DNA of 16,216 nt from a virus (taxonomy: Duplodnaviria > Heunggongvirae > Uroviricota > Caudoviricetes), in the IMG/VR virus record IMGVR_UViG_2778261420_000018, positions 1 through 16,216 of that record; one strand, written 5' to 3'. Below the pieces are notes generated by a model that was given only the letters and a program-made list of their open reading frames with translations, was not told the DNA's origin and did not search any database. Positions 1,060 through 16,216 of this stretch are shown here, piece by piece (position 1 is the stretch's first letter; every line of letters begins with the position of its first letter). Made by a program: the position numbers and the translations under genes.

Positions 1060-1065
1060 AGAAGA

Positions 1066-1553: not shown

Positions 1554-1582
1554 AATATACGCGATTTAATTGACTTTTGCAA
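1554..1582 (-). promoter_or_regulatory. Candidate late promoter (PR'-like), minus strand: TTGCAA - 17 bp - TATATT
   Basis: -35 TTGCAA at 1582..1577 and -10 TATATT at 1559..1554 with a 17-bp spacer, overlapping the 3' end of the Q-like gene and about 50 nt upstream of the candidate terminator. Analogous to lambda PR' -> 6S RNA -> tR'. Confidence 0.35.
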
Positions 1583-2261
1583 TAACCCGCCGCGAAAAGG
1601 TCGCTTTTTGTTGCGATCTTGTTTTCATGGTATAAATCAAAGATTCGTTGTCGAGGTTCTTAAAAATGTCGCACATATCACGCCAGTAGTGCGCATAATT
1701 GTGGCTCCAGTTGTCTGACTTAACTCCACACAGTCTGGCAAGTTCCTGTCGCTGGTAGACGTCACACCCAGTAATCCTCCCCCTGACATCCTGCGCCGCC
1801 AGCCAGATTAATTTCTTCAGACGCTCAAGCGTTTTCCCTGTAATTTTTCTGGTGCCAAAATGCACCTGAAACTTATCCCACGCCCATTTCGCAATGACCA
1901 CCTGATAATCCCAACTCGGATTTTCACTGTATACCCACAGTACCCATGCCTTCTGATGCTCTTCAAGAGACAGAACGGCGCGTCGCCATGATGATGTCGA
2001 AAACTCAACCGGACTGACCAGGGCAATTGATGAACCTTTCGCCAGCGATTGCTTTCCCGGGATCGGTGGATTATCCAGCGTTACCATTTTTCCAGTGACC
2101 TTATCGCGGTACCGGATTTTTTTACGTCTGTAACGCCCTGTATCAAACATGGCATTCTCCTGCCAGGCTTCAAGCTGACCTTTTGTTGCCCCACTCAAAT
2201 CGGCGGTGGCGATAATGAGCTGCTCACGAACAAACTGTAAATACTGGTTATTCATGCGCAC
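1566..2261 (-). CDS. Putative late-gene antiterminator, Q-like (about 229 aa)
   Basis: Sits immediately downstream of rusA at the end of the early-right operon, the canonical Q slot. A likely ATG start at 2255..2253 overlaps the rusA stop as ATGA; the ORF-track start at 2261 is GTG. Candidate PR'/tR' follow it. My recollection is that Q-like antiterminators of cryptic E. coli lambdoid prophages are of this size and type; not verified. Confidence 0.5.
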   Translation of the reverse strand: MRMNNQYLQFVREQLIIATADLSGATKGQLEAWQENAMFDTGRYRRKKIRYRDKVTGKMVTLDNPPIPGKQSLAKGSSIALVSPVEFSTSSWRRAVLSLEEHQKAWVLWVYSENPSWDYQVVIAKWAWDKFQVHFGTRKITGKTLERLKKLIWLAAQDVRGRITGCDVYQRQELARLCGVKSDNWSHNYAHYWRDMCDIFKNLDNESLIYTMKTRSQQKATFSRRVIAKVN

Positions 2262-2611
2262 TCCAGCTCTGTGATTTTTATCCCCAACCGACCACCAGGA
2301 ACAGGCAGTCCGCGCACAATATTGATTTCATCAAACTGCTCGTCGTCGATAAGCAACCCCGCATGTGTCAGTGCATCCAGTGGTGCTTTCAGAATATTGT
2401 CCAGGTCACGACGGCGCTTATCCGGTGGCTCTGCAATCACCTTTATCGCCAGCCGTCCGGACAGGTTTAATTTCAGCCGCTGCTCGCGAACAATTAGCGC
2501 CACATCCCGGCGATAACGCTCACCGGCTTTTGATACAAAATATGTGTTGTCACGACGTCGCCAGTAGGTGTTCACCGTTGGCGGATAAGGCAAAACAAAC
2601 TCTATACGCAT
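2252..2611 (-). CDS. rusA: Crossover junction endodeoxyribonuclease RusA (Holliday junction resolvase), 119 aa
   Basis: Clear similarity to E. coli RusA as I recall it: N-terminal LPYPPTVNTYW (RusA: LPWPPSNNRYY), the catalytic-region motif RRRDLDN, then K..DALT.AG...DD and GGRL..ITE. SD GAGG precedes the ATG. Confidence 0.9.
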   Translation of the reverse strand: MRIEFVLPYPPTVNTYWRRRDNTYFVSKAGERYRRDVALIVREQRLKLNLSGRLAIKVIAEPPDKRRRDLDNILKAPLDALTHAGLLIDDEQFDEINIVRGLPVPGGRLGIKITELECA

Positions 2612-2623
2612 CAGTAACCTCTT

Positions 2624-3619
2624 TTACCCAAGCACGCCGGTTGCAAAGGCGTGATCAAGAAAATGAAAAATTAAATCAACCTGGGAACCATGCTTTTCTT
2701 CGAATACCAGCGGATCCGCATGAAGCTCGTTGTGATGCTCCCGACACAGCGGTAGTGTGAAAATATCGTGGGATTTTGTTCCCATTCCACCCTGACCGTG
2801 GCCTATCAGATGGTGGGGATCATCAGCAGGCTTTCCACAACATGCACACGGCTGTGTCTTAACCCAGCGCGTGTACTTTTCATTAACCCAGCGGCGACGT
2901 TTTGGGCGTAACATAAAAGACTCCGGCGACTCTGGATCCACTTTCAGCGCCAGCACCTTTTTCGCTTTATCCTGGATAATGCTGGTGGCAGGAACCGAAG
3001 GAACAAGGTCACTCTCCCGGGTGACAGACGGCACAACAGGCTTCGGTAATCTCAGTGCCTTACGGGCTGCACTTTCCGGTAAGGCATCAGCCAGGTCATT
3101 ACGAGCCAGCCACCAGCACAGTTCCGGCATTGTCACAACGTGACTGTCATCAAAACCGAGATCCCGACGCACAACAGACAACGCCCAGCGGGCACAGTTA
3201 TCCGTTGCCATTGATTCCAGCCGTTCCGTGAACTGATCGCGCAGCTGGTTATCGCAGTGCCAGCACAGACGGATTGCGCCCGGAGCGTGTCGCATTGTGG
3301 TCATGTTCTCGCTGTGCCAGTTGGAATGAGGCCACTGACAGCCCTTTTCACGAAGTAACCAGCTTTCAAGACATTCCACGCCACCAGCACGACGGATCAC
3401 TGCCTCATTGCGGAACACGGCCCGAACGGCAGGATCATCCGCCAGCGGTTGTGATGCCGCCGGAACGGCACCACTGGCAAAAGATGAATAACGTTCCGGC
3501 TCAGGCTCCAGCAGGACACGCCCCTGCATAAACAGGGGCATCAGCTCTGAACCGGGCCTGAACAATACGATCCCCATACGCGGGGCAATTTCAGGGGTCA
3601 GTAGTGCTCTCACGGTCAC
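2624..3619 (-). CDS. DUF968-like prophage protein with C-terminal Cys/His (HNH-like) motif, 331 aa
   Basis: C-terminus CACCGKPADDPHHLIGHGQGGMGTKSHDIFTLPLCREHHNELH is a Cys/His-rich putative metal-binding motif, which I recall as typical of a conserved lambdoid family found between the replication genes and rusA/Q. GTG start at 3619; exact start uncertain. Confidence 0.65.
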   Translation of the reverse strand: MTVRALLTPEIAPRMGIVLFRPGSELMPLFMQGRVLLEPEPERYSSFASGAVPAASQPLADDPAVRAVFRNEAVIRRAGGVECLESWLLREKGCQWPHSNWHSENMTTMRHAPGAIRLCWHCDNQLRDQFTERLESMATDNCARWALSVVRRDLGFDDSHVVTMPELCWWLARNDLADALPESAARKALRLPKPVVPSVTRESDLVPSVPATSIIQDKAKKVLALKVDPESPESFMLRPKRRRWVNEKYTRWVKTQPCACCGKPADDPHHLIGHGQGGMGTKSHDIFTLPLCREHHNELHADPLVFEEKHGSQVDLIFHFLDHAFATGVLG

Positions 3620-3664
3620 CTCAGCGAACGGTATTGCATGAACGCAGAAGAAAAAATTCAGCCA

Positions 3665-3922
3665 TCACGCAGTAAACTCCTTCACCAGTATTTCAAACTG
3701 GCTTACCTGGCCTTCCAGTTCCGCCACGCAATCCACCAGCTCATCCACCGCCTTTTGTGTGCGGTGTTTTGCCAGCAGCAGATCACGCAGCGCCGGAGTA
3801 AGCTGCTTGCGGAGCGTATCCTTTGCCACGCTCGTTTTTTCCATCTGTTCAGCACAACGAAGCATCTCCTGCGCCTGCCGACGAAGTTGTTCCGGTGAAA
3901 CAGTGGTTGTTCTGTTATTCAA
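3665..3922 (-). CDS. Hypothetical small protein (85 aa), predicted helical/coiled-coil
   Basis: ORF in the operon; TTG start overlaps the DnaB-like stop (TTGA); GGAG lies about 10 nt upstream. An internal ATG (MLRCAEQ...) is an alternative start. Confidence 0.5.
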   Translation of the reverse strand: MNNRTTTVSPEQLRRQAQEMLRCAEQMEKTSVAKDTLRKQLTPALRDLLLAKHRTQKAVDELVDCVAELEGQVSQFEILVKEFTA

Positions 3923-5310
3923 AATAAACGCTCCGTTTTACTGCCCGACATGCGGTTATTGCTGTATCTGCGCGGATTGCCCGGCGTCATGGGTGTGGAA
4001 AGAACCCGGGCACTCTCCTGGTCCACTGGCAGAAAATGTCCGTTATGAAAACGCCGGTAAATGGTCCCGAGCGTGCCATTACGCTGTTTCGTGATGTTGA
4101 TTTCTGCTATGCCTCCGGCCTGCGTTTCCGGGTTGTATACCTCATCCCTGTAAAGCATCAGAATGATGTCGGCATCCGCCTCGATTTCCCCGGAGTTTTT
4201 CAGGTCCGAGTTCATGGGGCGTTTATTGGGTCTGGATTCCACGCCGCGGGAGAGCTGGCTCAGAGCAATCAGCGGAAAACCGCCGGATTTTGCCAGGCTT
4301 TTAAGTCCCTTTGAGATTTCCCCCACCGCAAGGTCGTGACGCCCCGTGCTGCGGGTTTTAATCAGGCCGAGGTAATCGACCACCACCAGCGCCGTTTCCG
4401 GGTGTTTCATCCAGTGGTGCTTCGTGGTTGCACATATCTCATCAATGGTCAGGTTTGCCTGGTCCACCATCCAGATATTACGCCCCGTCATTCGTCCCAC
4501 ACCCTGTGAGAAGCGTGCCCAGTCTTCGTCTTCAAAACGGGCAACAGACTTAAGACGGGATACCGGCATTCCACCGGCAGCAGACACCATACGTTCACCA
4601 ATCTGGATGTTCGCCATCTCCATGGTGAACAGAAGCACGCCATGCCCCTGCTCAGTCACCTTGTCGATGATGTCCAGCGCCAGTTCGGTTTTGCCCATTG
4701 ACGGACGAGCCGCAATAAATACCAGGTCGCCGGGCTCCATGCCGCCTGTTTTTGCGTCCAGTTCATCAATACCGGTCATCAGCATTCTGGATTTCTCCAG
4801 TCCCTGATTCCGGCATTCAACACGGTCGACCACTTCCGGAAGTACATCATCAATGTGAACAGGCTGAATGACGCCCTTTTCCATCGACAATGAGGCCATC
4901 ATGTTTTGAGCATCCTTCAGAGCATCTTCAGCTGCTTCACAGGTATGCGCATCACGTAATTTCTGCAGCGCCTCATTCAGTGTTTTTTCTGCATCACGCA
5001 ATGCGGCATTGCGCCGCAGCGCTGCAACATAGTGCTCCAGTGACGACTTCACCCAGGTTTTGCGCCCGGTATCAGTAATCACCGGGGCAAGTTCCGGCAT
5101 ATCATTGCACAGCAGCACAGGATCAATCGCACCTGAAACACGGGCCTGTCTGCAGATGCCTGTGTAGATATCCCGATACGCTCGTACAGAAAAAACGTCC
5201 GCCGGTAGTGTGGCCAGAATATCCATCACTTCATGATCTGCCCCTCGCAGAAAAAACGCGCCAATGACAGCGCCTTCCAGGTCATCGTTACGCCAGACAG
5301 GAGAAGTCAT
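3919..5310 (-). CDS. Replicative DNA helicase, DnaB-like (phage-encoded), 463 aa
   Basis: Walker A AARPSMGKTELAL; other conserved DnaB-type C-terminal segments (VVVDYLGLI, SQLSRGVESRPNKRPMNSDLKNSGEIEADADIILMLYRDEVY); SD GAGGTG; start overlaps the DnaC-like stop. Confidence 0.9.
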   Translation of the reverse strand: MTSPVWRNDDLEGAVIGAFFLRGADHEVMDILATLPADVFSVRAYRDIYTGICRQARVSGAIDPVLLCNDMPELAPVITDTGRKTWVKSSLEHYVAALRRNAALRDAEKTLNEALQKLRDAHTCEAAEDALKDAQNMMASLSMEKGVIQPVHIDDVLPEVVDRVECRNQGLEKSRMLMTGIDELDAKTGGMEPGDLVFIAARPSMGKTELALDIIDKVTEQGHGVLLFTMEMANIQIGERMVSAAGGMPVSRLKSVARFEDEDWARFSQGVGRMTGRNIWMVDQANLTIDEICATTKHHWMKHPETALVVVDYLGLIKTRSTGRHDLAVGEISKGLKSLAKSGGFPLIALSQLSRGVESRPNKRPMNSDLKNSGEIEADADIILMLYRDEVYNPETQAGGIAEINITKQRNGTLGTIYRRFHNGHFLPVDQESARVLSTPMTPGNPRRYSNNRMSGSKTERLF

Positions 5311-6194
5311 GCAGCCACACCTCTGATACGAGAACGATAGCTGGGCCAGTTAAACGACAACCAGTTGCGTCCCCCGTCTGTGATCCTGTCGGCAATGCGG
5401 GGGCTGATGAATGCCCACAACTCTTCCGGTGAAAGGTTGCTGATCAGGATGGTGGGCAGGATGCTTTCGTACCGGGCATTGATAATTTCCTGCAAAATAG
5501 CCATTTCAGCCGCGCTGCCAAACTGAACGCCGACTTCGTCGATGATCAGCAAATCCATTGACGCATAATGCTCAATAACTTCATCCGCTGTTTTTTCGCT
5601 GTCATTTCGCCAGCAGTTTTTCACAGCACGGGTAAGGCGCATCACATCAGTAATCTCCACACTAGCCAGATGGTTACGGATGATGTGTTTTGCCATAGCC
5701 ACAGCCAGATGATTTTTTCCAGTACCACAACTGCCTGTCAGAACAAGACTGGTACCGTTAGCCAGAACATCCTCCCAGCTCTCCGCATAGCGGCGGCAGG
5801 CAGCAAGATTTCTGGCTGCATCAGAGTTAATCTCCTGATAGTTTTCAAACTCACAGTCGCGAAACCTACAGGCAACACCAGCATTCTCAATCAGCACATC
5901 AGCTTTCATTGCAACCAGAGTCCGATGTGTCACATCCATTTCATCCACCAGACACTCCGGACAGCGGGAAATTTTTGAGGCAGCGCCCCCCTGCCGATCA
6001 TCCCACACCAGTATATGCGTACGATATTTACCGTGTTTTTCGCAGCATCCAACCCCTTCAGATTCCCGACAGGCACGGTAAGGCCATGGCTTTTCGCCAT
6101 TCTGAGCAAATGCAATCTCTGCCCGTAACTCATCCATTCGCGCCTGTAGTCTTGTTTGTTTCTCACGTTGGTCAATCGTCATCATCGCTGTCAC
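5307..6194 (-). CDS. Helicase loader, DnaC/IstB-like AAA+ ATPase, 295 aa
   Basis: Walker A GSCGTGKNHLAVAMA and Walker B LLIIDEVG; N-terminal Cys cluster (CCEKHGKY...CPEC). Sits between the O-like and DnaB-like genes. Confidence 0.85.
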   Translation of the reverse strand: MTAMMTIDQREKQTRLQARMDELRAEIAFAQNGEKPWPYRACRESEGVGCCEKHGKYRTHILVWDDRQGGAASKISRCPECLVDEMDVTHRTLVAMKADVLIENAGVACRFRDCEFENYQEINSDAARNLAACRRYAESWEDVLANGTSLVLTGSCGTGKNHLAVAMAKHIIRNHLASVEITDVMRLTRAVKNCWRNDSEKTADEVIEHYASMDLLIIDEVGVQFGSAAEMAILQEIINARYESILPTILISNLSPEELWAFISPRIADRITDGGRNWLSFNWPSYRSRIRGVAA

Positions 6195-6195
6195 C

Positions 6196-7188
6196 TCAGA
6201 ATGTCAATTTGTTACTGGATTTACCGAATTTGTCAGACATGGCTCCCAGGCCAGCCAGGACATCGACCTGTCGCTGTCGCCCACCTCCGTGAGCGGCTGG
6301 CTGTTGCCAGTAATCTTCGAAGTGACGATCGGGTCCAAAGAACGTCGCAGCCTGCTTCACGAACTGTGTGCCGGTATTTCCTGTAGCACGTACCCAGGCG
6401 GCATACCGCTTCACGCCATCAAGCATGGTCTCCGGTTTTATTCCCTCCCTGATACGGGCTTTCCAGGCTTTGAAGGCTGCTGACTTGGAATTGCCACCAG
6501 CACGTTTGGGATATTCCTGCCAGGCCTGTTCAAATTCCGGTGAATATTCCTGTCGGGCAGAACGCGCTGGCGCAGACGCGTCAGCGGATGCATCAATAGT
6601 GTTTTTAGTCTCCGTTGTAATCTCTGTAGTAATCTCTGTATTTGTATCAACATTCGGCGTATCCCCTGTTCCGTTATGACGTCGGGGGGTGTTCCGTTTT
6701 AACGTAATAGCTGTATCGCTGATTGCATTATTGCTGTTACTTTCTGGCGAAACAGAAGAAGGTGTGGTGATGGCCGCAATTGCCTGTGGGTTGATCCCGA
6801 CAAACAAAATATTGCTGCATTTCACCCCATCGAGCATTTCCACCGTGCGTAAATCCAGAGTAATAAACCCTGCATCGCGCAGACGCTTCAGCGCATCTGC
6901 GGTTTCCCTTTTCCCGAAACCAAACTGCTCAGCAAACGCCTGGTAGCTTCTTTGCAGTTTGTCGCCCTGAAAACGCTTGCGATATCCCAGCAACGCTCCG
7001 GTGTGCTCATCCCTGACCTCTGTCGGGCGGTACCAGTAAACGATCTCTGAAAGCAGAGCGATAGCCGTCGCATCCGGACGCCCACTGGGTAGTCGAATAT
7101 ATTTCCACCAGTTCGCAGGTGTAACATTGCCGGAAATATTAATTTGACCAATAGCCATAACTTCCGGTGTGGGGGCGTAACGGCTCAT
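6196..7188 (-). CDS. Replication initiation / replisome organiser protein (lambda O-like N-terminal region, TEITTEITTE linker, C-terminal DnaT-like domain), 330 aa
   Basis: Strong SD AAGGAGG; start overlaps the upstream gene stop; central low-complexity linker encoded by tandem DNA repeats; C-terminal EFEQAWQEYPKR...KAWKARI resembles the DnaT/primosome C-terminal domain often fused to phage replication initiators. Confidence 0.75.
   Translation of the reverse strand: MSRYAPTPEVMAIGQINISGNVTPANWWKYIRLPSGRPDATAIALLSEIVYWYRPTEVRDEHTGALLGYRKRFQGDKLQRSYQAFAEQFGFGKRETADALKRLRDAGFITLDLRTVEMLDGVKCSNILFVGINPQAIAAITTPSSVSPESNSNNAISDTAITLKRNTPRRHNGTGDTPNVDTNTEITTEITTETKNTIDASADASAPARSARQEYSPEFEQAWQEYPKRAGGNSKSAAFKAWKARIREGIKPETMLDGVKRYAAWVRATGNTGTQFVKQAATFFGPDRHFEDYWQQPAAHGGGRQRQVDVLAGLGAMSDKFGKSSNKLTF
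6611..6698. repeat. Iteron-like direct repeats inside the O-like gene (candidate replication origin)
   Basis: Perfect tandem 12-mer GTAATCTCTGTA x2 (6617-6640) followed by a partial copy; GTTCCGTT repeated at 6668-6675 and 6691-6698; TCCGTTGTA at 6611. In lambda the ori iterons lie inside O in the inter-domain linker. Confidence 0.35.
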
Positions 7189-7484
7189 ACAACCTCCTTC
7201 CGCGGCATGAGAATTGTGTAGCCACGCGCAGGTTGTAGTCTGGCTTTTGCATCAATAGTAAGCGTTGCAATTTTTCGGATATGAAGATAACCAGCTCTTT
7301 CCAGTGCCAGGGTTTCCCTGAATATCGCTTGCTTAGAACAACAGCAGAAATCAGCAAGCACCTGATGATCAATAACTCTCTCGCCTTCACCGTCTGAAGA
7401 ACCCGACATCAAAACACGCAACATAATCAGGCGCTGAATCGGGTTATCGAAAGCACATCCGCACACAAACTGAAAACAGTTCAC
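7185..7484 (-). CDS. Hypothetical protein (99 aa), possible winged-helix DNA-binding protein
   Basis: ORF coupled on both sides (ATGA overlaps at 7481-7484 and 7185-7188); the segment VIDHQVLADFCCCSKQAIFRETLALERAGYLHI looks like an HTH. Confidence 0.55.
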   Translation of the reverse strand: MNCFQFVCGCAFDNPIQRLIMLRVLMSGSSDGEGERVIDHQVLADFCCCSKQAIFRETLALERAGYLHIRKIATLTIDAKARLQPARGYTILMPRKEVV

Positions 7485-7705
7485 GCCACACCTCCCAGAC
7501 GCTTAAACATTTTTCCAGACAGAAATACCGCCAGAGGGTAACTGATGGTGTAGCTACGCCCCTGTAGTTCGCACACGACTTTCTGGCTTTCAGCGTTGAC
7601 TAGGCAAACCCGCAGAACGTGGCCGTTGCTGGTGGCAAACCACTGCCCCACACGGGGGCAACGGTTGTATCGGTGATACAGGGAATTAACGACGCGGCGA
7701 ATCAT
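7481..7705 (-). CDS. Hypothetical small protein (74 aa; MIRRVVNSLYHRYNRCPRVGQWF...)
   Basis: Best start is the ATG at 7705..7703, preceded by GGAGGT with 6-nt spacing and overlapping the upstream stop (ATGA). The ORF-track start at 7720 lacks an SD. Confidence 0.5.
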   Translation of the reverse strand: MIRRVVNSLYHRYNRCPRVGQWFATSNGHVLRVCLVNAESQKVVCELQGRSYTISYPLAVFLSGKMFKRLGGVA

Positions 7706-8064
7706 GGGCGCACCTCCCATTGATTACGACGGAAAACAGTGTGATTCAGGTTGGTCTCAGCCTCATGGAATGCTTCAATGCAGCTCTCGTAGTACCGCAT
7801 TGTGCGCAGACTTAACCCAAGCTGAAGCATCATCAGACCATCAAGGGTGATGTAATAACCACGCAGGGAGTCACCGTAGATGTGATAAGTACCCGGTATG
7901 AAATTGCGGGTAAAAAACTCGCGTGAGCAGTTCAGATACTCGATTTTGTCGACGATGTTCTGGTGCATGCGCTTAAAGTGGCAGGCAACATGCAGGGAGA
8001 AAATAACGGCCTTGCCGTTGACAACTTCAATTTTCAGGTATGGGGAAGTTGGGACTGTAGCCAT
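7702..8064 (-). CDS. Hypothetical protein (120 aa from MATVPTSPYLKIEVV...); the ORF could extend to 8364 (220 aa)
   Basis: Internal ATG at 8064..8062 has a GGAGG SD 8 nt upstream. The upstream 100 codons lie in a GC-rich stretch where three frames are open and the ATG at 8364 has no SD. Confidence 0.5.
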   Translation of the reverse strand: MATVPTSPYLKIEVVNGKAVIFSLHVACHFKRMHQNIVDKIEYLNCSREFFTRNFIPGTYHIYGDSLRGYYITLDGLMMLQLGLSLRTMRYYESCIEAFHEAETNLNHTVFRRNQWEVRP

Positions 8065-8448
8065 GATGGCAGCCTCCGTATGCAATGGATAACTTCCACC
8101 ACCGGAGGTGCAAATCTCGCTGGTGGCGGACTGAACAGGGTTTGCACTACCGGCGCATACGGAAACCGGCGAGCCTTTCGGCTCCCCTGCCCAGCCCACC
8201 ATAATTCTGGCGTGCGCGAGCATGAACGATAAAAAAGACGCTGGCGCGTCATATATCGCCGTATGCAATTCCGGGGTGCAAATCCCGGCACCCGCTTTAT
8301 AAGGTGCCTGAACAGTGTAACGTCCCGAAATTGCAGAATCAATATTTGGTCTTGAAATGATCATATAGCTGCTGATATCTTTAGAACTGTTCTTGGATGT
8401 TTCGGAACCGTTTTATGCGAAACAGCTCCCCGTTATTGATGTTGAGTG

Positions 8449-8474
8449 AGCCGGGTTACTCCCGGCTTTTTTTT
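8449..8474 (+). terminator. Strong plus-strand intrinsic terminator, antisense to the early-right operon, abutting the rha stop codon
   Basis: agccggg (8449-8455) / loop ttact / cccggct (8461-8467), followed by T8 (8467-8474). On the minus strand the hairpin is preceded by A8 and not followed by a U-run, so it is oriented for plus-strand transcripts. Confidence 0.55.
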
Positions 8475-9181
8475 CACCGCTGCCAACCAATAACCTGAAA
8501 TAACCCCATTTTCGGGTGATACCAGCGAGTCCCTCGCGGTTCTGCTTCCTCCATAACCCGATAAAAAGCAGCCATAAACGGTTCCACAGCAACAATTGCG
8601 CGACGTGACAACAATCCGTCCGGCGTCATGAACTCATGGGTGTCTGTAGGAATTTGATAAGCGTTCACCAGATTGCGGCATTTATCATCTGACAAACCGG
8701 TTTTCGCTTTCAGTTGGCGATATCCGGCATAGCCCTCACGAATGGTGCCCTTTTTGATTTGCTCAACTGTTTCGGCAACGTGGCTGACTTTTTCTTCCAC
8801 CTGAGTGATCCGTTTCTGCTGACGAACTGCTTCAAGAGCCATCGCGGCAACCATTTCGATTTCGCTCATTGGCTTACGGATCTGTTCTTCCAGTTCGCGC
8901 CAGCGATCTACCAGGCGAGCAGTGAATTCAGGACAGAGCTGTGCGACGACAATGATGCTGTCGCGCTTACCTTGTTCTCCTTCAAACAGGTAATGCTCAT
9001 ATTGAACTTTAAAACCTAAGTTATTGATTCTTTCGGAAACCTCAATTTGAGGAGACCGGACAACGCCACCTTTGGCTAATGTTTCAATAGTGCGTTTCAC
9101 ATTGTCATGACGTTTACCCACCAGCTCTGCAATTTCAACGCTGGTCATGGATACTTTGCCGTTAAAAATTGCGATGTTCAT
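8474..9181 (-). CDS. rha: Phage regulatory protein Rha (N-terminal Rha domain), 235 aa
   Basis: N-terminal signature SVEIAELVGKRHDNVKRTIETL (Rha-family xxGKRHDNVxR motif); SD AGGAGA 6 nt upstream; start overlaps the cro-like stop (ATGA). Confidence 0.8.
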   Translation of the reverse strand: MNIAIFNGKVSMTSVEIAELVGKRHDNVKRTIETLAKGGVVRSPQIEVSERINNLGFKVQYEHYLFEGEQGKRDSIIVVAQLCPEFTARLVDRWRELEEQIRKPMSEIEMVAAMALEAVRQQKRITQVEEKVSHVAETVEQIKKGTIREGYAGYRQLKAKTGLSDDKCRNLVNAYQIPTDTHEFMTPDGLLSRRAIVAVEPFMAAFYRVMEEAEPRGTRWYHPKMGLFQVIGWQR

Positions 9182-9468
9182 TGTTTATCTCCTGCGTGTA
9201 TTCCATCCGCTCTGTGTGGTGAACTTGGATTTAGGCTTTTGCGTAACAAGTTAGGAATTCCATCTTCAGGGTGAGGATAAAGATCTGGCCTTAAGCCATG
9301 AGGCGTAACCTTCCATGCAACTACTTCACATACTCGTAAAACGAAACGAGCAGGAATTGTGCTTTTTGAAAACCACTGATTCACCGCTTGCGGCGTCACA
9401 CCAAGATTTCGCGCTATGGCATTTTGCGCAATTAATGCACGAAGTTTGTCGTAATCATTTCCTTCCAT
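9178..9468 (-). CDS. Cro-like / YdaS-family HTH regulator (96 aa), first gene of the early-right operon
   Basis: HTH LGVTPQAVNQWFSKSTIP followed by a ...GLRPDLYPHPED segment characteristic of YdaS/Cro-like prophage regulators; divergent from the CI-like repressor. Confidence 0.7.
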   Translation of the reverse strand: MEGNDYDKLRALIAQNAIARNLGVTPQAVNQWFSKSTIPARFVLRVCEVVAWKVTPHGLRPDLYPHPEDGIPNLLRKSLNPSSPHRADGIHAGDKQ

Positions 9469-9601
9469 AACAAAGCACCAATATTAACTTTATAAATCAA
9501 GAATACATCAAGTTTAAATTAACATGCAAGTTACAAAAGGATCGAATACACTAAAATCAAGTAAAGATTTATCCTTGTAAAGAAACCCACAGGATTTGGT
9601 C
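9469..9601. promoter_or_regulatory. Divergent immunity-region control region (PR/PRM-equivalent promoters and operators)
   Basis: 133-bp AT-rich intergenic region between divergent cro-like and cI-like genes; repeated motifs ATCAAG(T) at 9496-9501, 9507-9513 and 9556-9562, and ACATCAAGTT / ACATGCAAGTT. Exact operators not resolvable by eye. Confidence 0.5.
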
Positions 9602-10291
9602 ATGAAGAACGTCAAAAACACGGAAAATCGAATAGCCGCGATGCTGAAAGCAAAAGGATGGACTCAGGCTCAACTGGCCCGCAAGTTAGGTGTGAGTGCG
9701 CAATCAGTGCAGTACTGGACAACAGGAAAAACATTTCCACGGAGTGATAAGCTCGCGCATTTATCAGAGATTAGCGGTTATCCACAATCCTGGTTCTTAG
9801 GTGAAGACTCCTCACCAACCTTTTCCTCGCAAGAGAAACACCAGACAAGAACAGATAGCGTCGTGTTTAATGTCCTTGATGTTGAGTTTAGTTGCGGTGA
9901 TGGAACTCATGTCCGTGGTGACTTGATAGATGTAGTGCGCTCAATAGAACTTGATCCTGAATATGCCCGACGTCTTGTTGGAAATCGGGCATTCAAAAAT
10001 ATAGAAATAGGTAACGCCAGAGGAGACAGTATGGCTCCCACAATCTCACCTGGCGACCTTCTTTTTCTTGATAAGACAGTAACTTATTTTGATGGCGATG
10101 GTATTTATGCATTTTGTTTTGATGGAGAATGCTACGTGAAAAGGCTTCAGAAAATTGGAAGCAAAATCATGGTGTTATCTGATAACCCCAATTATCAACC
10201 ATGGAGCATCGAAAAAGAGGGGTTAGCTCTGCTTTATATCCAGTCTAAAGTGATCTCATCAGTACCATTCAACATAAACAGATTTGGTTAG
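9602..10291 (+). CDS. CI-like prophage repressor with N-terminal HTH and C-terminal S24 (LexA-like) self-cleaving peptidase domain
   Basis: HTH GWTQAQLARKLGVSAQSVQYW; C-terminal GDSMAPTI (Ser nucleophile motif) and YVKRL (Lys). SD AGGA 7 nt before the ATG at 9602; the ORF-track start at 9596 is TTG. Confidence 0.85.
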   Translation: MKNVKNTENRIAAMLKAKGWTQAQLARKLGVSAQSVQYWTTGKTFPRSDKLAHLSEISGYPQSWFLGEDSSPTFSSQEKHQTRTDSVVFNVLDVEFSCGDGTHVRGDLIDVVRSIELDPEYARRLVGNRAFKNIEIGNARGDSMAPTISPGDLLFLDKTVTYFDGDGIYAFCFDGECYVKRLQKIGSKIMVLSDNPNYQPWSIEKEGLALLYIQSKVISSVPFNINRFG

Positions 10292-10302
10292 TCTTTGATT
10301 TT

Positions 10303-10325
10303 AACGGGCTTTGCCCGTTTTTTTT
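10303..10325 (+). terminator. Rho-independent terminator after the cI-like gene
   Basis: aacgggc / ttt / gcccgtt hairpin followed by a T8 run, 12 nt after the stop codon. Confidence 0.7.
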
Positions 10326-10355
10326 CTGCCTGAAATATACGATATCAATTTTTTC

Positions 10356-10384
10356 TTGACAGCCTATTTCCCAAAACATAATAT
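10356..10384 (+). promoter_or_regulatory. Near-consensus sigma70 promoter for the 10438-11138 cassette (TTGACA - 17 bp - TAATAT)
   Basis: TTGACA at 10356-10361, 17-bp spacer, TAATAT at 10379-10384, about 55 nt upstream of the ATG at 10438, directly after the cI terminator. Confidence 0.5.
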
Positions 10385-10437
10385 CGCACCATCAATTATA
10401 ACTTGATTTTATTCAATTTAAAATTGTTGGCGGATAT

Positions 10438-10899
10438 ATGAAGACACTAAAAGCAACTCCAGAAACAACTAATTTTATCAACTGCGGCTGTGTTACGCTT
10501 AAGGGCTTAGAACTTGATTCCTTTGCATTAAATATTGCAAATTTGCTAAGTGCTGTACGCACATTCCATCTTCTGGATTGTGCTCGCTCAAAGGAACTGG
10601 GCATTGAGGTAATGGAATTTATCCATGAATATGCTCTATCTGCTGCTTCTCCTGCACAACAAAAACAATCCTTCCCTGAAAGCTGGCTGGTTAACCTTCG
10701 CACCCAACGCGAAGCCTGCGGCTTAACAACCGCCGAACTCGCCAGGCTGCTCGATCTCGATGAAGAAATTATCATCCAGTGGGAGAGCGGAGAGTATGAA
10801 CCAACTATCAGTATGCTTATCCCACTGGCAAATATTCTTGGCTGCGATGCGATGTGGCTGTTAACTGGCGAAACGGCAGCAAAGGATATCTGCGCATGA
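10438..10899 (+). CDS. Hypothetical protein with C-terminal XRE-family HTH and an N-terminal ~85-aa domain of unknown function (153 aa)
   Basis: C-terminal GLTTAELARLLDLDEEIIIQWESGEYEPTISMLIPLANILGCDAMWLLTG is a classic Cro/C1-type HTH; the N-terminal domain is not recognised. Own promoter; AT-rich (about 37% G+C on a hand-counted line). Confidence 0.7.
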   Translation: MKTLKATPETTNFINCGCVTLKGLELDSFALNIANLLSAVRTFHLLDCARSKELGIEVMEFIHEYALSAASPAQQKQSFPESWLVNLRTQREACGLTTAELARLLDLDEEIIIQWESGEYEPTISMLIPLANILGCDAMWLLTGETAAKDICA

Positions 10900-11138
10900 A
10901 AAACTGTGATGCTTACCATATTTGTCTCATTGGTGAATTGCTTGATTTCATACAAAAAAGCACTGCGCGCAATAATAAAAATATAACATATGGTGATCTG
11001 GTAATAATTTCAGAGGATATAAAGAGCATCGCTCTTAAATTCAAGGGCGACGCGAGTATTGATGACGCTATTTACGCTTATCTTGCGAAAATAATTGACG
11101 GATCCAAAATCCAGCCTCTGGATGAACCTCGTCAGTGA
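10896..11138 (+). CDS. Hypothetical small protein (80 aa; MKNCDAYHICLIGELLDFIQKSTARNNKNITYGDLVIISEDIK...), translationally coupled to the preceding gene
   Basis: ATG at 10896 overlaps the upstream stop (ATGA); AAAGGA lies 9 nt upstream. Its 3' 71 nt overlap a convergent minus-strand ORF with a better SD, so one of the two may not be real. Confidence 0.45.
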   Translation: MKNCDAYHICLIGELLDFIQKSTARNNKNITYGDLVIISEDIKSIALKFKGDASIDDAIYAYLAKIIDGSKIQPLDEPRQ

Positions 11139-11295
11139 AAAACTCCTTTGATGAAGATGTGAACTGCTTCATAAACTTTACTTTATCTTCAGGTGAAACT
11201 ACCTGACGAATTAATGCGGAGATAGCAACTTTGTGCCAAATTAATTCTTTTTTGAGTTCTGAAATCTCTTTTTCGAGTTGCTCTGCGTTAATCAT
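11068..11295 (-). CDS. Hypothetical small charged protein (75 aa), predicted helical/coiled-coil
   Basis: Near-perfect SD GGAGGA 3 nt before the ATG (11295..11293). Convergent with, and overlapping, the 3' end of 10896..11138. Confidence 0.5.
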   Translation of the reverse strand: MINAEQLEKEISELKKELIWHKVAISALIRQVVSPEDKVKFMKQFTSSSKEFFTDEVHPEAGFWIRQLFSQDKRK

Positions 11296-11474
11296 TTATC
11301 CTCCATTGAGAGCTGAATTGAAAATGGGGACCAACACGCGGCTACGTGTGGTCGTGCGCCGGACACGGATAAGCATCCGGTAACTGATTATCAATCATTG
11401 CGGAAACAGTCTCAATATGAAAACACTTCTGAGACTCGCTATATAGCAGGACATATAAGTCAGCTGAGGAAGCC

Positions 11475-11840
11475 ATGAAAAAGTTCGAAAACATAATTGT
11501 TCTCCATGTTGATGACTTTGATTATACAAACCCGGAACTTCTCCCGGAGGTTGTAAAGGCAATAGATGTTGCCGATATAGTGATTAGAGGAAAGAGAATT
11601 GTCAAAAACAGGCTCGCATGCACTTCAGAAGCAATGACAGAAACAACCTCACAGCAAGATAATTACGAAGGCATTTGTCTGGAGCCTGATTCATTTGCGG
11701 TAAATGTTTATCATTTATTGCATGCAACACAGGTATTACATATGTCCAGTAATCACGAAACGAAAACACTCGGCAGCGAAATTCTGAATTTTGCATGTGA
11801 GTATGCAAAAACTGCTGCCGAAAAAGAATTAGCGCAATAA
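11475..11840 (+). CDS. Hypothetical protein (121 aa), first gene of the early-left operon
   Basis: ATG preceded by GAGGAAG; a TATATA -10-like element lies upstream; no recognisable family. Confidence 0.55.
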   Translation: MKKFENIIVLHVDDFDYTNPELLPEVVKAIDVADIVIRGKRIVKNRLACTSEAMTETTSQQDNYEGICLEPDSFAVNVYHLLHATQVLHMSSNHETKTLGSEILNFACEYAKTAAEKELAQ

Positions 11841-11918
11841 CAATAAATATGCCCTGAACGTTTATTGCAGTTTTATCGCCGGGGAATGTTACAATCTTAA
11901 TCCACAGGAGGCTTTATT

Positions 11919-12032
11919 ATGACTTTTATAAAGAATATGGCATCACACAAGACCGCCTGCCTTATTGCACAATACGGTGAAAATTACATGCATATTGCCT
12001 GCTTATTTCTGCGTAAAGCATACGAGAAATAA
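11919..12032 (+). CDS. Small ORF (37 aa; MTFIKNMASHKTACLIAQYGENYMHIACLFLRKAYEK)
   Basis: Not in the ORF track (below 60 aa). AGGAGG SD 7 nt before the ATG at 11919; stop 3 nt before the next gene start. Confidence 0.4.
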   Translation: MTFIKNMASHKTACLIAQYGENYMHIACLFLRKAYEK

Positions 12033-12035
12033 CAA

Positions 12036-12395
12036 ATGACACATGAACCCATTAATACATATCGTCGCCGTATAGCTGTTGCAGCACTCCATCGAATAAA
12101 ACGTAAAACAGGTGGTGATCTGCTTATTGTTGACCTTCCGGATGGGAACATTACGACCATAGAAATAACAGAACAGTTTATAACCCAGTTGCTGTTGCGC
12201 TTTGAAGATATTACCCGTGGTGAATTGGGTCGAGTGGAGGGTGAAACAGAATTCCGAACTGCATACCAGAATGCTATCGGGATTAATCAACATACTGAAT
12301 ACCAGGCTGAAACCGGAAAGTTAATTATAGACAACCTTTTACAAGAGGTTATTGATTACGCGAAAGAAAAATATATCAGCGGAGGAATTAACTGA
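12036..12395 (+). CDS. Hypothetical protein (119 aa)
   Basis: ORF coupled to the downstream gene (ATGA overlap at 12393-12397). Confidence 0.6.
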   Translation: MTHEPINTYRRRIAVAALHRIKRKTGGDLLIVDLPDGNITTIEITEQFITQLLLRFEDITRGELGRVEGETEFRTAYQNAIGINQHTEYQAETGKLIIDNLLQEVIDYAKEKYISGGIN

Positions 12396-12610
12396 TGGCT
12401 AATTTATCCCCTGTATCTGTTGTACACGAAAAAGTGCAGATCGTTATGACAATTGAAAATGGCCAGGTAACAGATGTCTGCAAAGTCCGCGATGGAGAGC
12501 TGATTGCCAGCATGGATACATTCATATGGCTGGCAGAAAGAGCGGGGTATCAGATAACAGCACCTGCTCAGGAGGAAACCAGTGACATTAACAGCAACAC
12601 GAATTCCTGA
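12395..12610 (+). CDS. Hypothetical small acidic protein (71 aa)
   Basis: GGAGG SD 9 nt before the ATG at 12395; overlaps the next gene by 29 nt. Confidence 0.55.
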   Translation: MANLSPVSVVHEKVQIVMTIENGQVTDVCKVRDGELIASMDTFIWLAERAGYQITAPAQEETSDINSNTNS

Positions 12611-12800
12611 GTGGGTCCACCAGCAGGCGTTGCTGGTCCTGCGGCGGTACAGATGCCGACGTATATTCCCGCATCGGATACAGCGCAACGGATATCTCAG
12701 TCTGAAGGTTAACCGTCGCTGGCGGCTGTTATCGAAAGACGACGGCCGGAACTGGGAAGTAATGAGTCATGAACGTTATTCGGGAGAAATAAAGAAATGA
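12582..12800 (+). CDS. Hypothetical small basic protein (72 aa), GTG start; weak RelE/ParE-like C-terminal pattern
   Basis: GGAGG SD 6 nt before the GTG at 12582. C-terminal LKVNRRWRLLSKDDGRNWEVMSHERY loosely resembles the RelE/ParE pattern; unverified. Confidence 0.5.
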   Translation: MTLTATRIPEWVHQQALLVLRRYRCRRIFPHRIQRNGYLSLKVNRRWRLLSKDDGRNWEVMSHERYSGEIKK

Positions 12801-13189
12801 TCGACAACCGCACCGCCAGCGCCATTGACCAGGCATTACAGAAACATGATACACCCATCGGCCCGTTATTTTTTGTAACACGCCACGGAAGAACAAAAAA
12901 ATGCCTCACCCGAAAAACGGCAATTCGTTACCTGGCATTCTTTATGACCACCCGCGCTTTTGAACGTTCAGGATTCCGACAGCGCCATCCTGACAAGCGT
13001 TTTATCTTCAACGGGAATGAGATATGGAAACGAGGAGAATCAACCACAGAGTATACCCGCGCACACCAGCGAACAATCAGACGACTGCGCAGACTCATCG
13101 CCAGGAAACAGTATACAGAAAAATGGTTCAGAAAATATGACACATGGAGCGCCGGATATTACGAACTGATGGCAACAAAACCATTCTGA
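12797..13189 (+). CDS. Hypothetical highly basic protein (130 aa; Arg/Lys-rich, likely nucleic-acid binding)
   Basis: ATGA overlap with the upstream stop; GGAGA 9 nt upstream; many R/K residues (RRLRRLIARKQYTEKWFRKYD). Confidence 0.55.
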   Translation: MIDNRTASAIDQALQKHDTPIGPLFFVTRHGRTKKCLTRKTAIRYLAFFMTTRAFERSGFRQRHPDKRFIFNGNEIWKRGESTTEYTRAHQRTIRRLRRLIARKQYTEKWFRKYDTWSAGYYELMATKPF

Positions 13190-13431
13190 CGTAAACGAAA
13201 TTAACCATGACGCAATTAAATAAGGCAAGCCGAATACATCAGGAGGACCAGGAACATTTATTTCAAAATAGTTATATCACTGGCAATTATCGCATGCATT
13301 TACGGATTAATCGTTTCGGCCCTCATATCAATGAAGGATACGGTAGCAGTGATTTCTGGTTTTGCTCTGGCGTGTCTGACCCCGCCGTGCATTTGTGCCA
13401 TTTATAAGGGGCTTTCTTTCACCAAGGATAA

Positions 13432-13765
13432 ATGATGAAAAAAATTATTTTTTCTTTAGCCATTGTTCTGCCTGCCATTGGCCTTGTCGGTTGTGATCGT
13501 GTTGAGCCTGGTAATGTGGGCATCAAAGTCAACAAACTTGACGACGACAAAGGCGTCGGTGAAGTGGTCGGTGTTGGTCGCTACTGGACAGGCTGATGCG
13601 ATTCGCACAAAAGCCCAGGCTGAAGCCGATGCTATTCGTTTACGCGGTGAAGCTCTGCGTCAGAACCCCGGTGTTGTGGAGCTGGAAGCCATCAATAAAT
13701 GGAACGGCACGCTGCCGCAATACATGACCAGTGGTGCCAATACACCATTTATCCAGGTTAAATAA
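13432..13765 (+). pseudogene. Disrupted lipoprotein gene: lipoprotein signal plus SPFH/band-7-like N-terminus (13432-13596) and SPFH-like C-terminus in a different frame (to 13765); apparent internal deletion with frameshift
   Basis: Frame 1: MMKKIIFSLAIVLPAIGLVGC (lipobox) DRVEPGNVGIKVNKLDDDKGVGEVVGVGRYWTG, then stop at 13594-13596. Frame 2 continues ...QADAIRTKAQAEADAIRLRGEALRQNPGVVELEAINKWNGTLPQYM..., which looks like the C-terminus of band-7/SPFH proteins. Together about 110 aa, whereas intact SPFH proteins are typically about 250-300 aa. Confidence 0.45.
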
Positions 13766-13806
13766 CTTAATATGCCCGGCAGACCGTCGGGCTAAGGGAA
13801 AAGCAG

Positions 13807-14178
13807 ATGAACACTCATAATACTCAACCGCAAATAATGAACTATGACCCAAATCTGACGTCATGCGGACGCATGGCAAAACAAACCGTTCGATTAACTT
13901 TCGGGCTATGGGAATACCGCGAAACATTCGAAGTCACTGTCGGTGGCAACCTGACCGGACTCGATGTTATCAGTTGCGCTATTGAAAGCCTGTACGCAAC
14001 GCTGCCTTATGAAGAAGTCGAGGATGAGCGTACAGGGGAAACAGATATCATGGCCACCATTAATATTGGCGAACTGATATGCCAGGATGAAGACCTGTCC
14101 GGAGAGCTCTGGCTTGCCGGGATGCTTATCTCAGCAGAAATTATCAGTATTGAACCCGCTACAAACATACGGCTCTGA
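13807..14178 (+). CDS. Hypothetical strongly acidic protein (123 aa)
   Basis: AAGGGA SD; D/E-rich sequence (YEEVEDERTGETD, QDEDLSGELW). Confidence 0.6.
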   Translation: MNTHNTQPQIMNYDPNLTSCGRMAKQTVRLTFGLWEYRETFEVTVGGNLTGLDVISCAIESLYATLPYEEVEDERTGETDIMATINIGELICQDEDLSGELWLAGMLISAEIISIEPATNIRL

Positions 14179-14209
14179 AGTTCTCGCTATTCAGAGAGCA
14201 GGAGAAAAA

Positions 14210-14452
14210 ATGTTCGCTTTGATTAATCAGGGACAACTGTATACCGACAATGCCGGTTACCCGGTAAAAATTGTTCGCTGCATAAACAACACTGTGTTGT
14301 ACAGAAGAATGGATGGGCGAACACAGTCAGTAAAAATAAACGATTTCAATGAACTGTTTGAACGGATTGATCACCAGGAATACCGACAAATTCTGGCAGA
14401 AACAGAGCAGGAAGCTCATCTGAAAAAATTACGGGCCATGAAAAGGAAGTAA
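14210..14452 (+). CDS. Hypothetical small protein (80 aa; MFALINQGQLYTDNAGYPVKIVRCINNTVLYRRMDGRTQSVKINDF...)
   Basis: GGAGA SD 4 nt before the ATG at 14210. The ORF-track upstream extension to 14087 overlaps the previous gene and lacks an SD. Confidence 0.55.
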   Translation: MFALINQGQLYTDNAGYPVKIVRCINNTVLYRRMDGRTQSVKINDFNELFERIDHQEYRQILAETEQEAHLKKLRAMKRK

Positions 14453-14455
14453 AGA

Positions 14456-14602
14456 ATGAATAAAGCGTTTGAGCTATGGGTGCGCCAGCGTTACGGCAAT
14501 CGCTATGACCTGACGCGAGATGTTGACGGCTTCTACTGTCGTGAAATTGTGAAACGAATGTTTGAAGTGTGGTGCCACTGCCGTGGGCTGAGTGTTGTGT
14601 GA
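14456..14602 (+). CDS. Small ORF (48 aa; MNKAFELWVRQRYGNRYDLTRDVDGFYCREIVKRMFEVWCHCRGLSVV), Cys/His-containing
   Basis: Not in the ORF track; AAGGAAG SD 8 nt before the ATG at 14456; fills the gap before the xis-like gene. Confidence 0.4.
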   Translation: MNKAFELWVRQRYGNRYDLTRDVDGFYCREIVKRMFEVWCHCRGLSVV

Positions 14603-14610
14603 GGTAATGT

Positions 14611-14847
14611 ATGAGCAATGTGATTCAACTGGCTCCCAATGAATGGGTTTGTGAAAGCGTTCTTATCGCAATTACCGGGCTCAAACCAGGCACAATTCTT
14701 CGGGCCCGGAAAGAATGCTGGATGGTTGGAAGAGAGTATATTCACGTATCACCAGACGGTAATCCAAAGCCTTCCAGTGAATGTATGTATAACAGAAAAG
14801 CAATAGATGCCTGGGTCGCCTCAATGAAAAACAAACAACCCAGGTGA
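14611..14847 (+). CDS. Excisionase-like protein (Xis / AlpA-type winged helix), 78 aa
   Basis: Small gene immediately upstream of int; ITGLKPGTILRARKE resembles the HTH of AlpA/Xis-type excisionases; GAGGT SD. Confidence 0.6.
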   Translation: MSNVIQLAPNEWVCESVLIAITGLKPGTILRARKECWMVGREYIHVSPDGNPKPSSECMYNRKAIDAWVASMKNKQPR

Positions 14848-14902
14848 TTTAATATCATGAAATATGTAAGCTCGTATCGCTCTTGGGCGTCTGGAGGTAT
14901 CA

Positions 14903-16216
14903 ATGGATAAAGTCAAATATCCAACAGGCGTCGAAAACCACGGCGGCACATTACGCATCTGGTTTAATTTTAAAGGTAAACGTGTCAGGGAAAATCTTGG
15001 TGTCCCTGACACTGCCAAGAACAGGAAGATCGCCGGGGAACTGAGGACATCGGTATGTTTTGCCATCCGCACAGGAAGCTTTGATTATGCTGCACAGTTC
15101 CCTGACTCCCCCAACCTTCAGGCTTTTGGGGTAAGTAAAAAAGAAATTACGGTGAAGGAACTTGAAGAAAAGTGGCTGGATCTGAAACGAATGGAAATCT
15201 CTGCAAATGCATTCAATCGCTATGAATCCGTTGCAAGAACGATGGTTCCGAAAATTGGAGGCAGCAGACTGGTGTCATCGGTAACCAAAGAGGAATTGCT
15301 GTATATCAGGAAAGATTTACTGACCGGGTGTCAGAATTCAACGAAAAACAAAGCAGCAGCAAAAGGACGGAGCGTCGTTACTGTAAATTATTACATGACA
15401 ACTATCGCTGGAATGTTTCAGTTTGCTGCAGATCACGGTTACTTAGAAGCAAATCCCTTCCAGGGAATTAAGCCTCTTAAAAGAGCCAGGGCAGAGCCAG
15501 ATCCACTAACTCGTGACGAATTTATTCGCCTGATAGATGCTTGCCGACATCAGCAGACGAAAAACCTGTGGTCATTGGCTGTGTACACAGGAATGCGTCA
15601 CGGTGAACTGGTCTCCCTGGCCTGGGAGGATATCGATCTGAAAGCAGGAACTATTACTATCAGGCGCAATTATACGAAACTCAGTGAGTTCACTCTACCT
15701 AAAACTGAAGCAAGTACAAACAGGGTTGTGCATCTTATCCAGCCCGCTATCAGTGTCCTGAAAAATCAGGCTGAAATGACAAGACTGGGTAAGCAGCACC
15801 ACATCAAGGTTCAACTACGTGAATATGGGCGCTCAGTGAATCATGAATGTACTTTCGTATTTAACCCCCAGGTGGTTAGAAAAAGCAAACAGGTCGGTTT
15901 TATCTACAAGGTAGATTCTATTGGCGACTCATGGGAAACAGCCGTTAAGCGTGCGGGCATCAGGCACCGGAAAGCATACCAGTCACGACACACTTATGCG
16001 TGCTGGTCATTATCTGCCGGAGCAAACCCAAGCTTCATTGCCAGCCAGATGGGCCATGCAAGTGCCCAGATGGTATTCAATGTATACGGAGCATGGATGA
16101 CTGACAGTAATGCAGAACAGATCGCAATGCTGAATCAGAAGCTGGCAGATTATGTCCCAATGATGTCCCATGGTCACCAAAGTGACACAAGAGACTTATT
16201 AAAATCAGTGGGTTAG
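14903..16216 (+). CDS. int: Phage tyrosine integrase (site-specific recombinase), 437 aa; stop codon is the last codon of the window
   Basis: GGAGGT SD; catalytic-domain elements typical of tyrosine recombinases (GMRHGELVSLAWEDID, ...SRHTYACWSLSAGANPSFIASQMGHASAQMVFNVYGAW with the HxxR and terminal Y motifs). Confidence 0.9.
   Translation: MDKVKYPTGVENHGGTLRIWFNFKGKRVRENLGVPDTAKNRKIAGELRTSVCFAIRTGSFDYAAQFPDSPNLQAFGVSKKEITVKELEEKWLDLKRMEISANAFNRYESVARTMVPKIGGSRLVSSVTKEELLYIRKDLLTGCQNSTKNKAAAKGRSVVTVNYYMTTIAGMFQFAADHGYLEANPFQGIKPLKRARAEPDPLTRDEFIRLIDACRHQQTKNLWSLAVYTGMRHGELVSLAWEDIDLKAGTITIRRNYTKLSEFTLPKTEASTNRVVHLIQPAISVLKNQAEMTRLGKQHHIKVQLREYGRSVNHECTFVFNPQVVRKSKQVGFIYKVDSIGDSWETAVKRAGIRHRKAYQSRHTYACWSLSAGANPSFIASQMGHASAQMVFNVYGAWMTDSNAEQIAMLNQKLADYVPMMSHGHQSDTRDLLKSVG

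Follow-up and report, generated by a model that had tools for sequence, protein, structure and literature searches.

A predicted XRE-family regulator gene at the head of a putative cI-controlled early-left operon in a phiP27-like lambdoid prophage

In this work we analyzed the DNA that follows the cI repressor gene in a viral sequence of 16,216 nucleotides (Caudoviricetes; IMG/VR record IMGVR_UViG_2778261420_000018, positions 1 to 16,216), which as a whole is called the window below. The window covers the immunity region and the early region of a phiP27-like lambdoid prophage whose integration site is yecE: over the stretch tested it is 100% identical to the Escherichia coli TD225-C4 prophage adjoining yecE, parts of it are 99% identical to PhiR49_2, a phage, and the early-left region shares about 91% identity with that of the Shiga toxin (Stx) 2e phage phiP27. 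Directly after the cI terminator there is a promoter followed by two overlapping genes, here named A and B (10356-11138), that an earlier note on this DNA had described as a lysogen-expressed cassette at a position equivalent to that of rex or sieB. The explanation that best accounts for the data, and that we consider likely, is a different one: the cassette would be the cI-controlled early-left promoter together with the first genes of its operon, of which A encodes a regulator and B an orphan protein. The features on which the argument depends are the following.

9178-9468, minus strand: cro, YdaS/Cro-like
9469-9601, no strand assigned: cro-cI spacer, equivalent of the right operator (OR) region, with operator-like sites at 9477-9493, 9507-9523 and 9556-9572 (2, 2 and 1 mismatches, respectively)
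9602-10291, plus strand: cI repressor, with Peptidase_S24 (4e-17), the autocleavage domain, and HTH_3 (4.9e-8)
10303-10327, plus strand: intrinsic terminator of cI, a 7-bp stem (5 G-C pairs) with a 3-nt loop at 10303-10319, then a T-run (TTTTTTTT)
10344-10360, no strand assigned: putative left operator (OL) site overlapping the -35 region (ATCAATTTTTTCTTGAC, 1 mismatch to ATCAA-N7-TTGAT)
10356-10384, plus strand: predicted early-left promoter (equivalent of the leftward promoter, pL), TTGACA-17-TAATAT, 10 of 12 consensus matches
10391-10407, no strand assigned: putative OL site at the transcription start, a perfect 17-bp palindrome (ATCAATTATAACTTGAT) that covers the expected start site
10412-10428, no strand assigned: putative OL site, a weaker copy with 2 mismatches
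10438-10899, plus strand: gene A, predicted early XRE-family regulator of 153 aa (HTH_3; phrog_4836, 4.6e-77; structure model, Foldseek and homologues)
10896-11138, plus strand: gene B, an 80-aa orphan predicted as a three-helix bundle, whose start overlaps the A stop (ATGA); phrog_23054, 'unknown function'
14903-16216, plus strand: int

The terminator, the promoter, gene A with a helix-turn-helix (HTH) at its C-terminus, the 80-aa gene B and the ATGA overlap are all where the earlier note had placed them, and the two genes are, as it had described, coupled and served by a promoter of their own. The terminator hairpin begins 12 nt after the cI stop. The G+C content of about 37% that had been given for the cassette applies to B (37.4%), and the spacer between cI and A is AT-rich as well (30.8%); the value for 10356-11138 is 41.5%, that for A 45.7% and that for the whole window 47.1%.

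Promoter-like hexamers occur in this DNA at chance frequency (10 found, 10.2 expected in shuffled sequence), so that the hexamers alone prove nothing, and it is the comparative evidence that supports the promoter. The same caution applies to the palindromes. The motif ATCAA-N7-TTGAT with at most one mismatch is present at three sites in 16.2 kb, one in the cro-cI spacer (9556-9572) and two flanking the promoter core, a count that is within chance (1.1 expected; 22 of 200 shuffles reach 3) and is therefore not significant by itself; for this reason we gave weight only to the placement of the sites and to their covariation across phages. Regarding placement, inverted and direct repeat pairs tie 9497-9572, within the cro-cI spacer, to 10344-10418. 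Regarding covariation, 19 related loci were compared with the window, and all of them read cro (minus strand), cI (plus), A (plus) and then the early-left genes. In one of them (L011) the flanks have much diverged, the ATCAA-N7-TTGAT sites are kept and the recognition helix of cI is the same as in the window. Five other immunity types show different motifs, in each case common to the cro-cI spacer and to the promoter upstream of the A homologue; by type, the common motifs are AGTATCA/TGATAC in phiP27-type phages, TTAGTTA in L006 and ATAGAAC/GCAATAG in phage ASU11. In the distant contig L019, GTTTAG-N6-CTAAAC lies inside the promoter spacer and CTAAAC-GCA-GTTTAG between cro and cI. Shuffle tests on the common 8-mers gave P = 0.007-0.04 in 4 of the 6 loci.

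Downstream of the cI terminator no plus-strand terminator was found from 10327 to the end of int, and the search for other plus-strand sites with 10 of 12 promoter matches, from 10327 to int, yielded only one inside the gene L08, which is probably a chance match. Considering the motifs shared with the cro-cI spacer, their covariation, and the fact that this is the sole strong promoter ahead of a terminator-free array that extends to xis and int, the DNA sequence makes it quite probable that TTGACA-17-TAATAT is the OL/pL early-left control region. A search of the window and of 10280-11500 against Rfam returned nothing relevant to the A-B cassette.

The arrangement resembles the OL-pL region of lambda, P22 and 434 in that a strong sigma-70 promoter is located directly downstream of cI and in the same orientation, heads an operon that leads to xis-int, and overlaps with palindromic sites of which there are further copies in the cro-cI (OR) region. 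In 434 and P22 no rex genes intervene between cI and pL, as is the case in the window. It differs in that the operators are putative, that neither a nut-like element nor a protein of the N family was identified, and that the first gene encodes an XRE HTH protein instead of an N-type antiterminator; in Pfam and PHROGs neither A nor B matches the N family. The likeness to lambda RexAB and P22 SieB is restricted to the neighbourhood of cI. In lambda, the rexAB genes occupy the interval from cI to OL/pL and are cotranscribed with cI, whereas in the window there is a terminator after cI and operator-like sites are found upstream of A, so the cassette follows the operator-flanked promoter and is predicted to be repressed in lysogens. 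Since operator-like palindromes sit on a promoter that comes directly after the cI terminator, the cassette is placed downstream of OL/pL, at the position of lambda N, and we abandoned the equivalence with rex or sieB. The proposal of an independent lysogen-type promoter is not supported either, because putative cI sites overlap this promoter, which should thus be repressed in the lysogen.

The protein encoded by A carries an HTH_3 domain (PF01381) at residues 87-141 (E 1.1e-10; 41.7 bits against a cutoff of 23). In its AlphaFold2 (AF2) model, residues 1-20 are disordered, two helices (21-45 and 49-69, with a predicted local distance difference test score, pLDDT, of about 80) form an N-terminal hairpin, and a five-helix HTH spans residues 82-143; Foldseek placed this last part on the DNA-binding domain of P22 c2 with a root-mean-square deviation of 0.9 Å over 63 residues, and it also superposes on the DNA-binding domains of 434 and SinR. 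Both the sequence and the predicted fold place the HTH of A in PF01381, in agreement with the XRE-type HTH behind an unrecognised N-terminal domain that the earlier note had assigned, and it is very likely that A is a DNA-binding regulator. CI/Cro-type and DicA-type repressors belong to the same domain family, of which the A domain is a clear member, but in A the HTH is C-terminal, behind the hairpin, there is no S24 peptidase domain, and the gene is in the early-left operon and not at the immunity switch.

Almost all homologues of A come from E. coli prophages, and a few were found in Salmonella and Shigella. At least 1000 contigs carry one cluster, proteins of the family are on thousands, and 25 phage records include a member, among them Stx1a, Stx2a and Stx2d converting phages. 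The names in use are 'helix-turn-helix domain-containing protein' and 'transcriptional regulator', in addition to the tentative labels 'CII-like' and 'DicA'. The usual form has about 230 aa and two tandem HTH domains; A in the window has a single HTH, its end matches the end of the second domain of the longer forms, and from its sequence it looks like the product of a deletion between the HTH repeats. Within the family the HTH is nearly invariant and the N-terminal domain falls into at least six diverged types. In the 19 loci and the window each type of N-domain goes with one type of cI (one-to-one, six types), and the gene from the HTH onward assorts freely relative to the cI type. This pairing may be mere linkage: past the immunity block, homology begins with the conserved DNA of the HTH. 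Literature searches on the A family, on phiP27 L10 and on 'CII-like regulator' gave nothing relevant. The statement that neither protein of the cassette belongs to a characterised system was sustained by the profile and structure searches, which left B as an orphan and A in an uncharacterised family.

The N-terminal hairpin of A has a paralogue further down the same predicted transcript. Behind A there is always a gene for such a paralogue, which in the window is L08.

11475-11840, plus strand: homologue of L08, 121 aa, in which residues 69-115 are a paralogue of the A N-terminal hairpin; phrog_5451, phrog_4587

Residues 24-70 of A and 69-115 of L08 are 45% identical over 47 residues (BLASTP, E 9e-11), and the PHROG cross-matches agree with this paralogy, as A also matches phrog_4587 and phrog_5451. 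In phages with two-HTH forms of A, a hairpin-only protein of 66 aa starts a few bases after A; hairpin-only proteins of 66-72 aa were observed in L005, L010, L011 and L019, the last of which has both an L08 homologue and a hairpin-only protein, in this case of 72 aa. In L013-L018 it is L08 itself that comes directly after A, with an overlap of its start and the A stop. The annotation by PGAP comprises only the C-terminal 68 aa of L08 (L003 13335-13541); the protein sequence of the N-terminal 53 aa is conserved in the homologue of the distant L019, and the ATG at 11475 is preceded by a good ribosome-binding site (GAGGAAG). Given that the N-terminal half is kept in L019, the 121-aa form is probably the correct one.

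An XRE HTH fused to a predicted two-helix hairpin, with a small hairpin paralogue encoded nearby (L08, or the proteins of 66-72 aa), is reminiscent of SinR/SinI of Bacillus subtilis. The domain order of A is reversed with respect to SinR, with the hairpin at the N-terminus; many members of the A family have two tandem HTHs, and the setting here is a phage early operon. Neither A nor L08 matches the Pfam family SinI at E <= 1.

From these comparisons the following sequence of events can be proposed. In a lysogen, the cI transcript would end at the terminator (10303-10327) and cI bound at 10344-10360 and 10391-10428 would hold the promoter shut, with the cassette probably off. Upon infection, or when RecA triggers the autocleavage of cI, the promoter would fire and the early-left transcript would run through the terminator-free array formed by A, B, L08, the Ea22-like genes, xis and int. 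The first product, A, would probably oligomerise through its N-terminal hairpin and act on a DNA target conserved across immunity types, which is suggested because the HTH of A is nearly invariant. The hairpin paralogues made later, L08 in this case, would probably bind the hairpin of A and modulate its activity, as SinI does with SinR, and B would be a small accessory early protein translationally coupled to A. That the paralogues act as antagonists of A is a tentative idea that follows the SinI analogy. More doubtful is the extended version, in which phiP27-type phages, which have no N, would open their early-left programme with a timing circuit like that of SinR/SinI, where the hairpin tethers the invariant HTH or HTHs and L08 or the 66-72-aa paralogues titrate A; the hairpin might also contact cI or Cro, which would make A part of the immunity switch. 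A contact of the hairpin with an immunity-specific partner comes to mind because the N-domain type matches the cI type one-to-one while the part from the HTH onward assorts freely.

Several points weigh against the early-left account. The shuffle test on common 8-mers gave P = 0.19 for two immunity types, and the statistics of the individual loci are modest. Because the palindrome was derived from the OL side, its copy in OR is the sole independent observation, and the palindromes are poorer in the OR copies than in the OL copies. Repression of the early-left promoter by cI is proposed from motif sharing, and in phiP27-type phages there is no obvious terminator between cI and A, so that in these lysogens the cI transcript may read through into A to some extent. 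With respect to A, the confidence of the AF2 model is moderate (mean pLDDT 65.9), and both a DNA target for the protein and a role for it in phage development are hypothetical. L08 does not co-vary with the N-domain of A, given that the same L08 occurs with the phiP27-type N-domain, and this weakens a simple model of specific pairing; SinR/SinI is the closest working analogy, one of architecture and not a family assignment.

The 3' end of B overlaps that of a convergent gene, C, which is preceded by a leader of its own.

11068-11295, minus strand: gene C, convergent, 75 aa; phrog_20080, annotated by PGAP; ratio of nonsynonymous to synonymous polymorphism (pN/pS) 0.27; its 3' end overlaps that of B by 71 nt
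11415-11387, minus strand: promoter-like sequence TTGAGA-17-GATAAT upstream of C
11387-11296, minus strand: conserved, structured 5' leader of C of about 95 nt, in which a third predicted hairpin sequesters the Shine-Dalgarno sequence

Gene B is unannotated by PGAP and in the phiP27 record. A purine-rich AAGGA ends about 9 nt upstream of its start codon, and its 80-codon frame is intact in AT-rich DNA in which the other frames hold 1-11 stops. For the same pair of sequences, pN/pS is 0.23-0.33 in the frame of B versus about 0.8-1.1 in the two other plus-strand frames (P ~0.01, with two haplotypes only). A homologue that is 38% identical, P0133, is found in the same gene order in L019, which reads cI, promoter, A (29% identity), B, convergent C (61%), the leader (81% at the nucleotide level) and L08 (31%). 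By these features B does look like a real gene. Its AF2 model is a three-helix bundle (pLDDT 72) and the protein is slightly acidic and predicted to be soluble. No family was found for it in Pfam, NCBIfam or PADLOC, its only PHROG match being phrog_23054; word-based and exhaustive HMMER searches for relatives gave only its own small family and P0133, the structure search against PDB and BFVD gave no match at E <= 0.001, and the sequence search against PDB gave nothing. No relatives of B or C were found in species-representative genomes, and viral contigs gave close relatives only. Two possible origins of B were considered and rejected: that it has diverged from a copy of the hairpin domain (hhalign probability 0.2%), and that it was split off from the C-terminus of the 230-aa forms of A, since what these have in addition is a second HTH unrelated to B.

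It is quite possible that B is not a functional partner of A at all, and that B, C and the leader (10896-11474) form a separate mobile block between A and L08, in which B takes the ATGA-coupled start context that L08 has in phages without the block. This block is bounded by a 9-nt repeat (CATGAAAAA) and is absent in L013-L018, where the A stop overlaps the L08 start directly. B always co-occurs with C, both are conserved jointly in L019, and C has its own promoter and leader. Against this, the adjacency and the coupling of A and B are kept in L019 at 29-38% identity, which indicates that the arrangement is old and possibly selected. PhiR49_2 (L001 7338-7886) has lost B and C through a deletion that joins A to unrelated sequence, and the product has 182 aa. 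The C homologue of L019 is in the same position as in the window; in phiP27 (L002 4873-5173) a 1-nt insertion in a T-run splits C into two open reading frames (ORFs), and the record annotates only L09.

The leader of C has a wider distribution. It is also found at L004 3501-3593, L019 2402-2485 and L040-L043 (around 1501-1593), and it is kept at 81-89% nucleotide identity in about 1000 of 5426 complete E. coli genomes, mostly in DicA/DicC/DicB-type prophages, where it is found on the strand opposite to dicB and some 470-560 bp upstream of it. A small ORF adjoins the leader in most of the copies that were inspected, and the lengths and translations of these ORFs differ; in L019 the leader is 81% identical while the neighbouring proteins are 29-61% identical. 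RNAalifold predicted three hairpins, the third of which pairs CUCCAUU with AAUGGAG, and compensatory changes were observed in three pairs. No Rfam match was obtained for this leader, which from its sequence looks like an undescribed translational-control leader. The inverted repeat AGTCTCA-N15-TGAGACT (11408-11436) was considered as an operator for A on the C promoter and dropped, as it is not conserved in L019.

With regard to the function of A, it seems unlikely that this protein is an analogue of CII, that is, an early activator made from pL that turns on an establishment promoter of cI, the int promoter, or both, and so sets the frequency of lysogeny. A would be an early product, its HTH is invariant across immunity types, as befits a conserved binding site, and in the right arm (Rha, Ash, replication genes, RusA and Q) neither a lambda-type CII nor an N family protein was found. 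The idea is also favoured by the PHROG label 'CII-like regulator' and by the record of phage ASU11, which reads 'putative CII repressor'; yet these labels, one from PHROGs and one from a single phage record, are annotators' guesses, and A has no match to Pfam Phage_CII (PF05269). No candidate was identified for an activator site or for an establishment promoter, and a position in the left operon is unlike that of CII in lambda, P22 or 186.

Very improbable is what the earlier note had in mind, a lysogen-expressed moron at the rex/sieB position, with an exclusion or toxin-antitoxin (TA) activity in which A would be the antitoxin or regulator and B the effector: the terminator between cI and the cassette, its own promoter, the A-B coupling, the AT-richness of B and the spacer, the orphan status of B and the weak matches of the A HTH to generic antitoxin models (HipB-type 2.5e-5, MqsA-type 3.5e-4, far below the cutoffs) agree with it, but motifs specific to each immunity type and common to the cro-cI region overlap the promoter in six immunity types, the promoter heads the whole xis-int array, neither A nor B matches RexA, RexB or SieB in Pfam, NCBIfam, PHROGs or PADLOC, where A gave generic HTH matches only (RmrA, CapH, HTH_VI), and B, a predicted soluble and slightly acidic bundle, has no match to a toxin family or toxin-like fold. 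The obligate co-occurrence expected of a type II TA pair is not observed either, because most A genes have no adjoining B, their next gene being of the L08 type, and the B segment is present in 54 of the 5426 complete E. coli genomes. Of the functions that had been listed for the cassette, a regulatory module fits, and exclusion and TA are not supported.

The rest of the window has the organization of a lambdoid prophage. On the minus strand the order is cro, Rha, Ash, replication genes (DnaC-like and DnaB-like), DUF968, RusA and Q, and on the plus strand cI, the A-B cassette, L08, Ea22-type genes, xis and int; cI is 34-40% identical to HK022 and P22-type CI repressors. Two other observations were made in these arms. 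In the right arm, strong Rfam matches to C4 antisense RNA (81.7 bits, E 4e-15) and isrK (63.7 bits, E 7e-12), at 8119-8206 and 8231-8307 on the minus strand, fall within an 'Ash family' ORF of 220 aa (7702-8364), in its 5' part, and suggest an antirepressor module controlled by antisense RNA, of P1/P7 type or Gifsy type; the ORF is possibly over-extended. In the early-left array, an ORF at 12582-12800 (plus strand) overlaps the end of the preceding gene, and the identical ORF of TD225-C4 (L003 14283-14501) is annotated by PGAP as a 'ParE family toxin-like protein' of 72 aa.

On the reading that we prefer, the cassette at 10356-11138, apparently a mystery of the immunity region, is re-filed as the ordinary head of an early-left operon, and in searches for lysogen-expressed defence genes near cI a strong promoter just past the cI terminator should be considered first as a candidate pL. 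A belongs to an uncharacterised regulator family that is present in thousands of E. coli assemblies, including prophages that convert for Stx1 and Stx2, at the place that N occupies in lambda, and its architecture, a hairpin joined to an HTH and accompanied by hairpin-only paralogues, suggests a circuit of regulator and antagonist in the programme that Shiga-toxin phages follow on induction.

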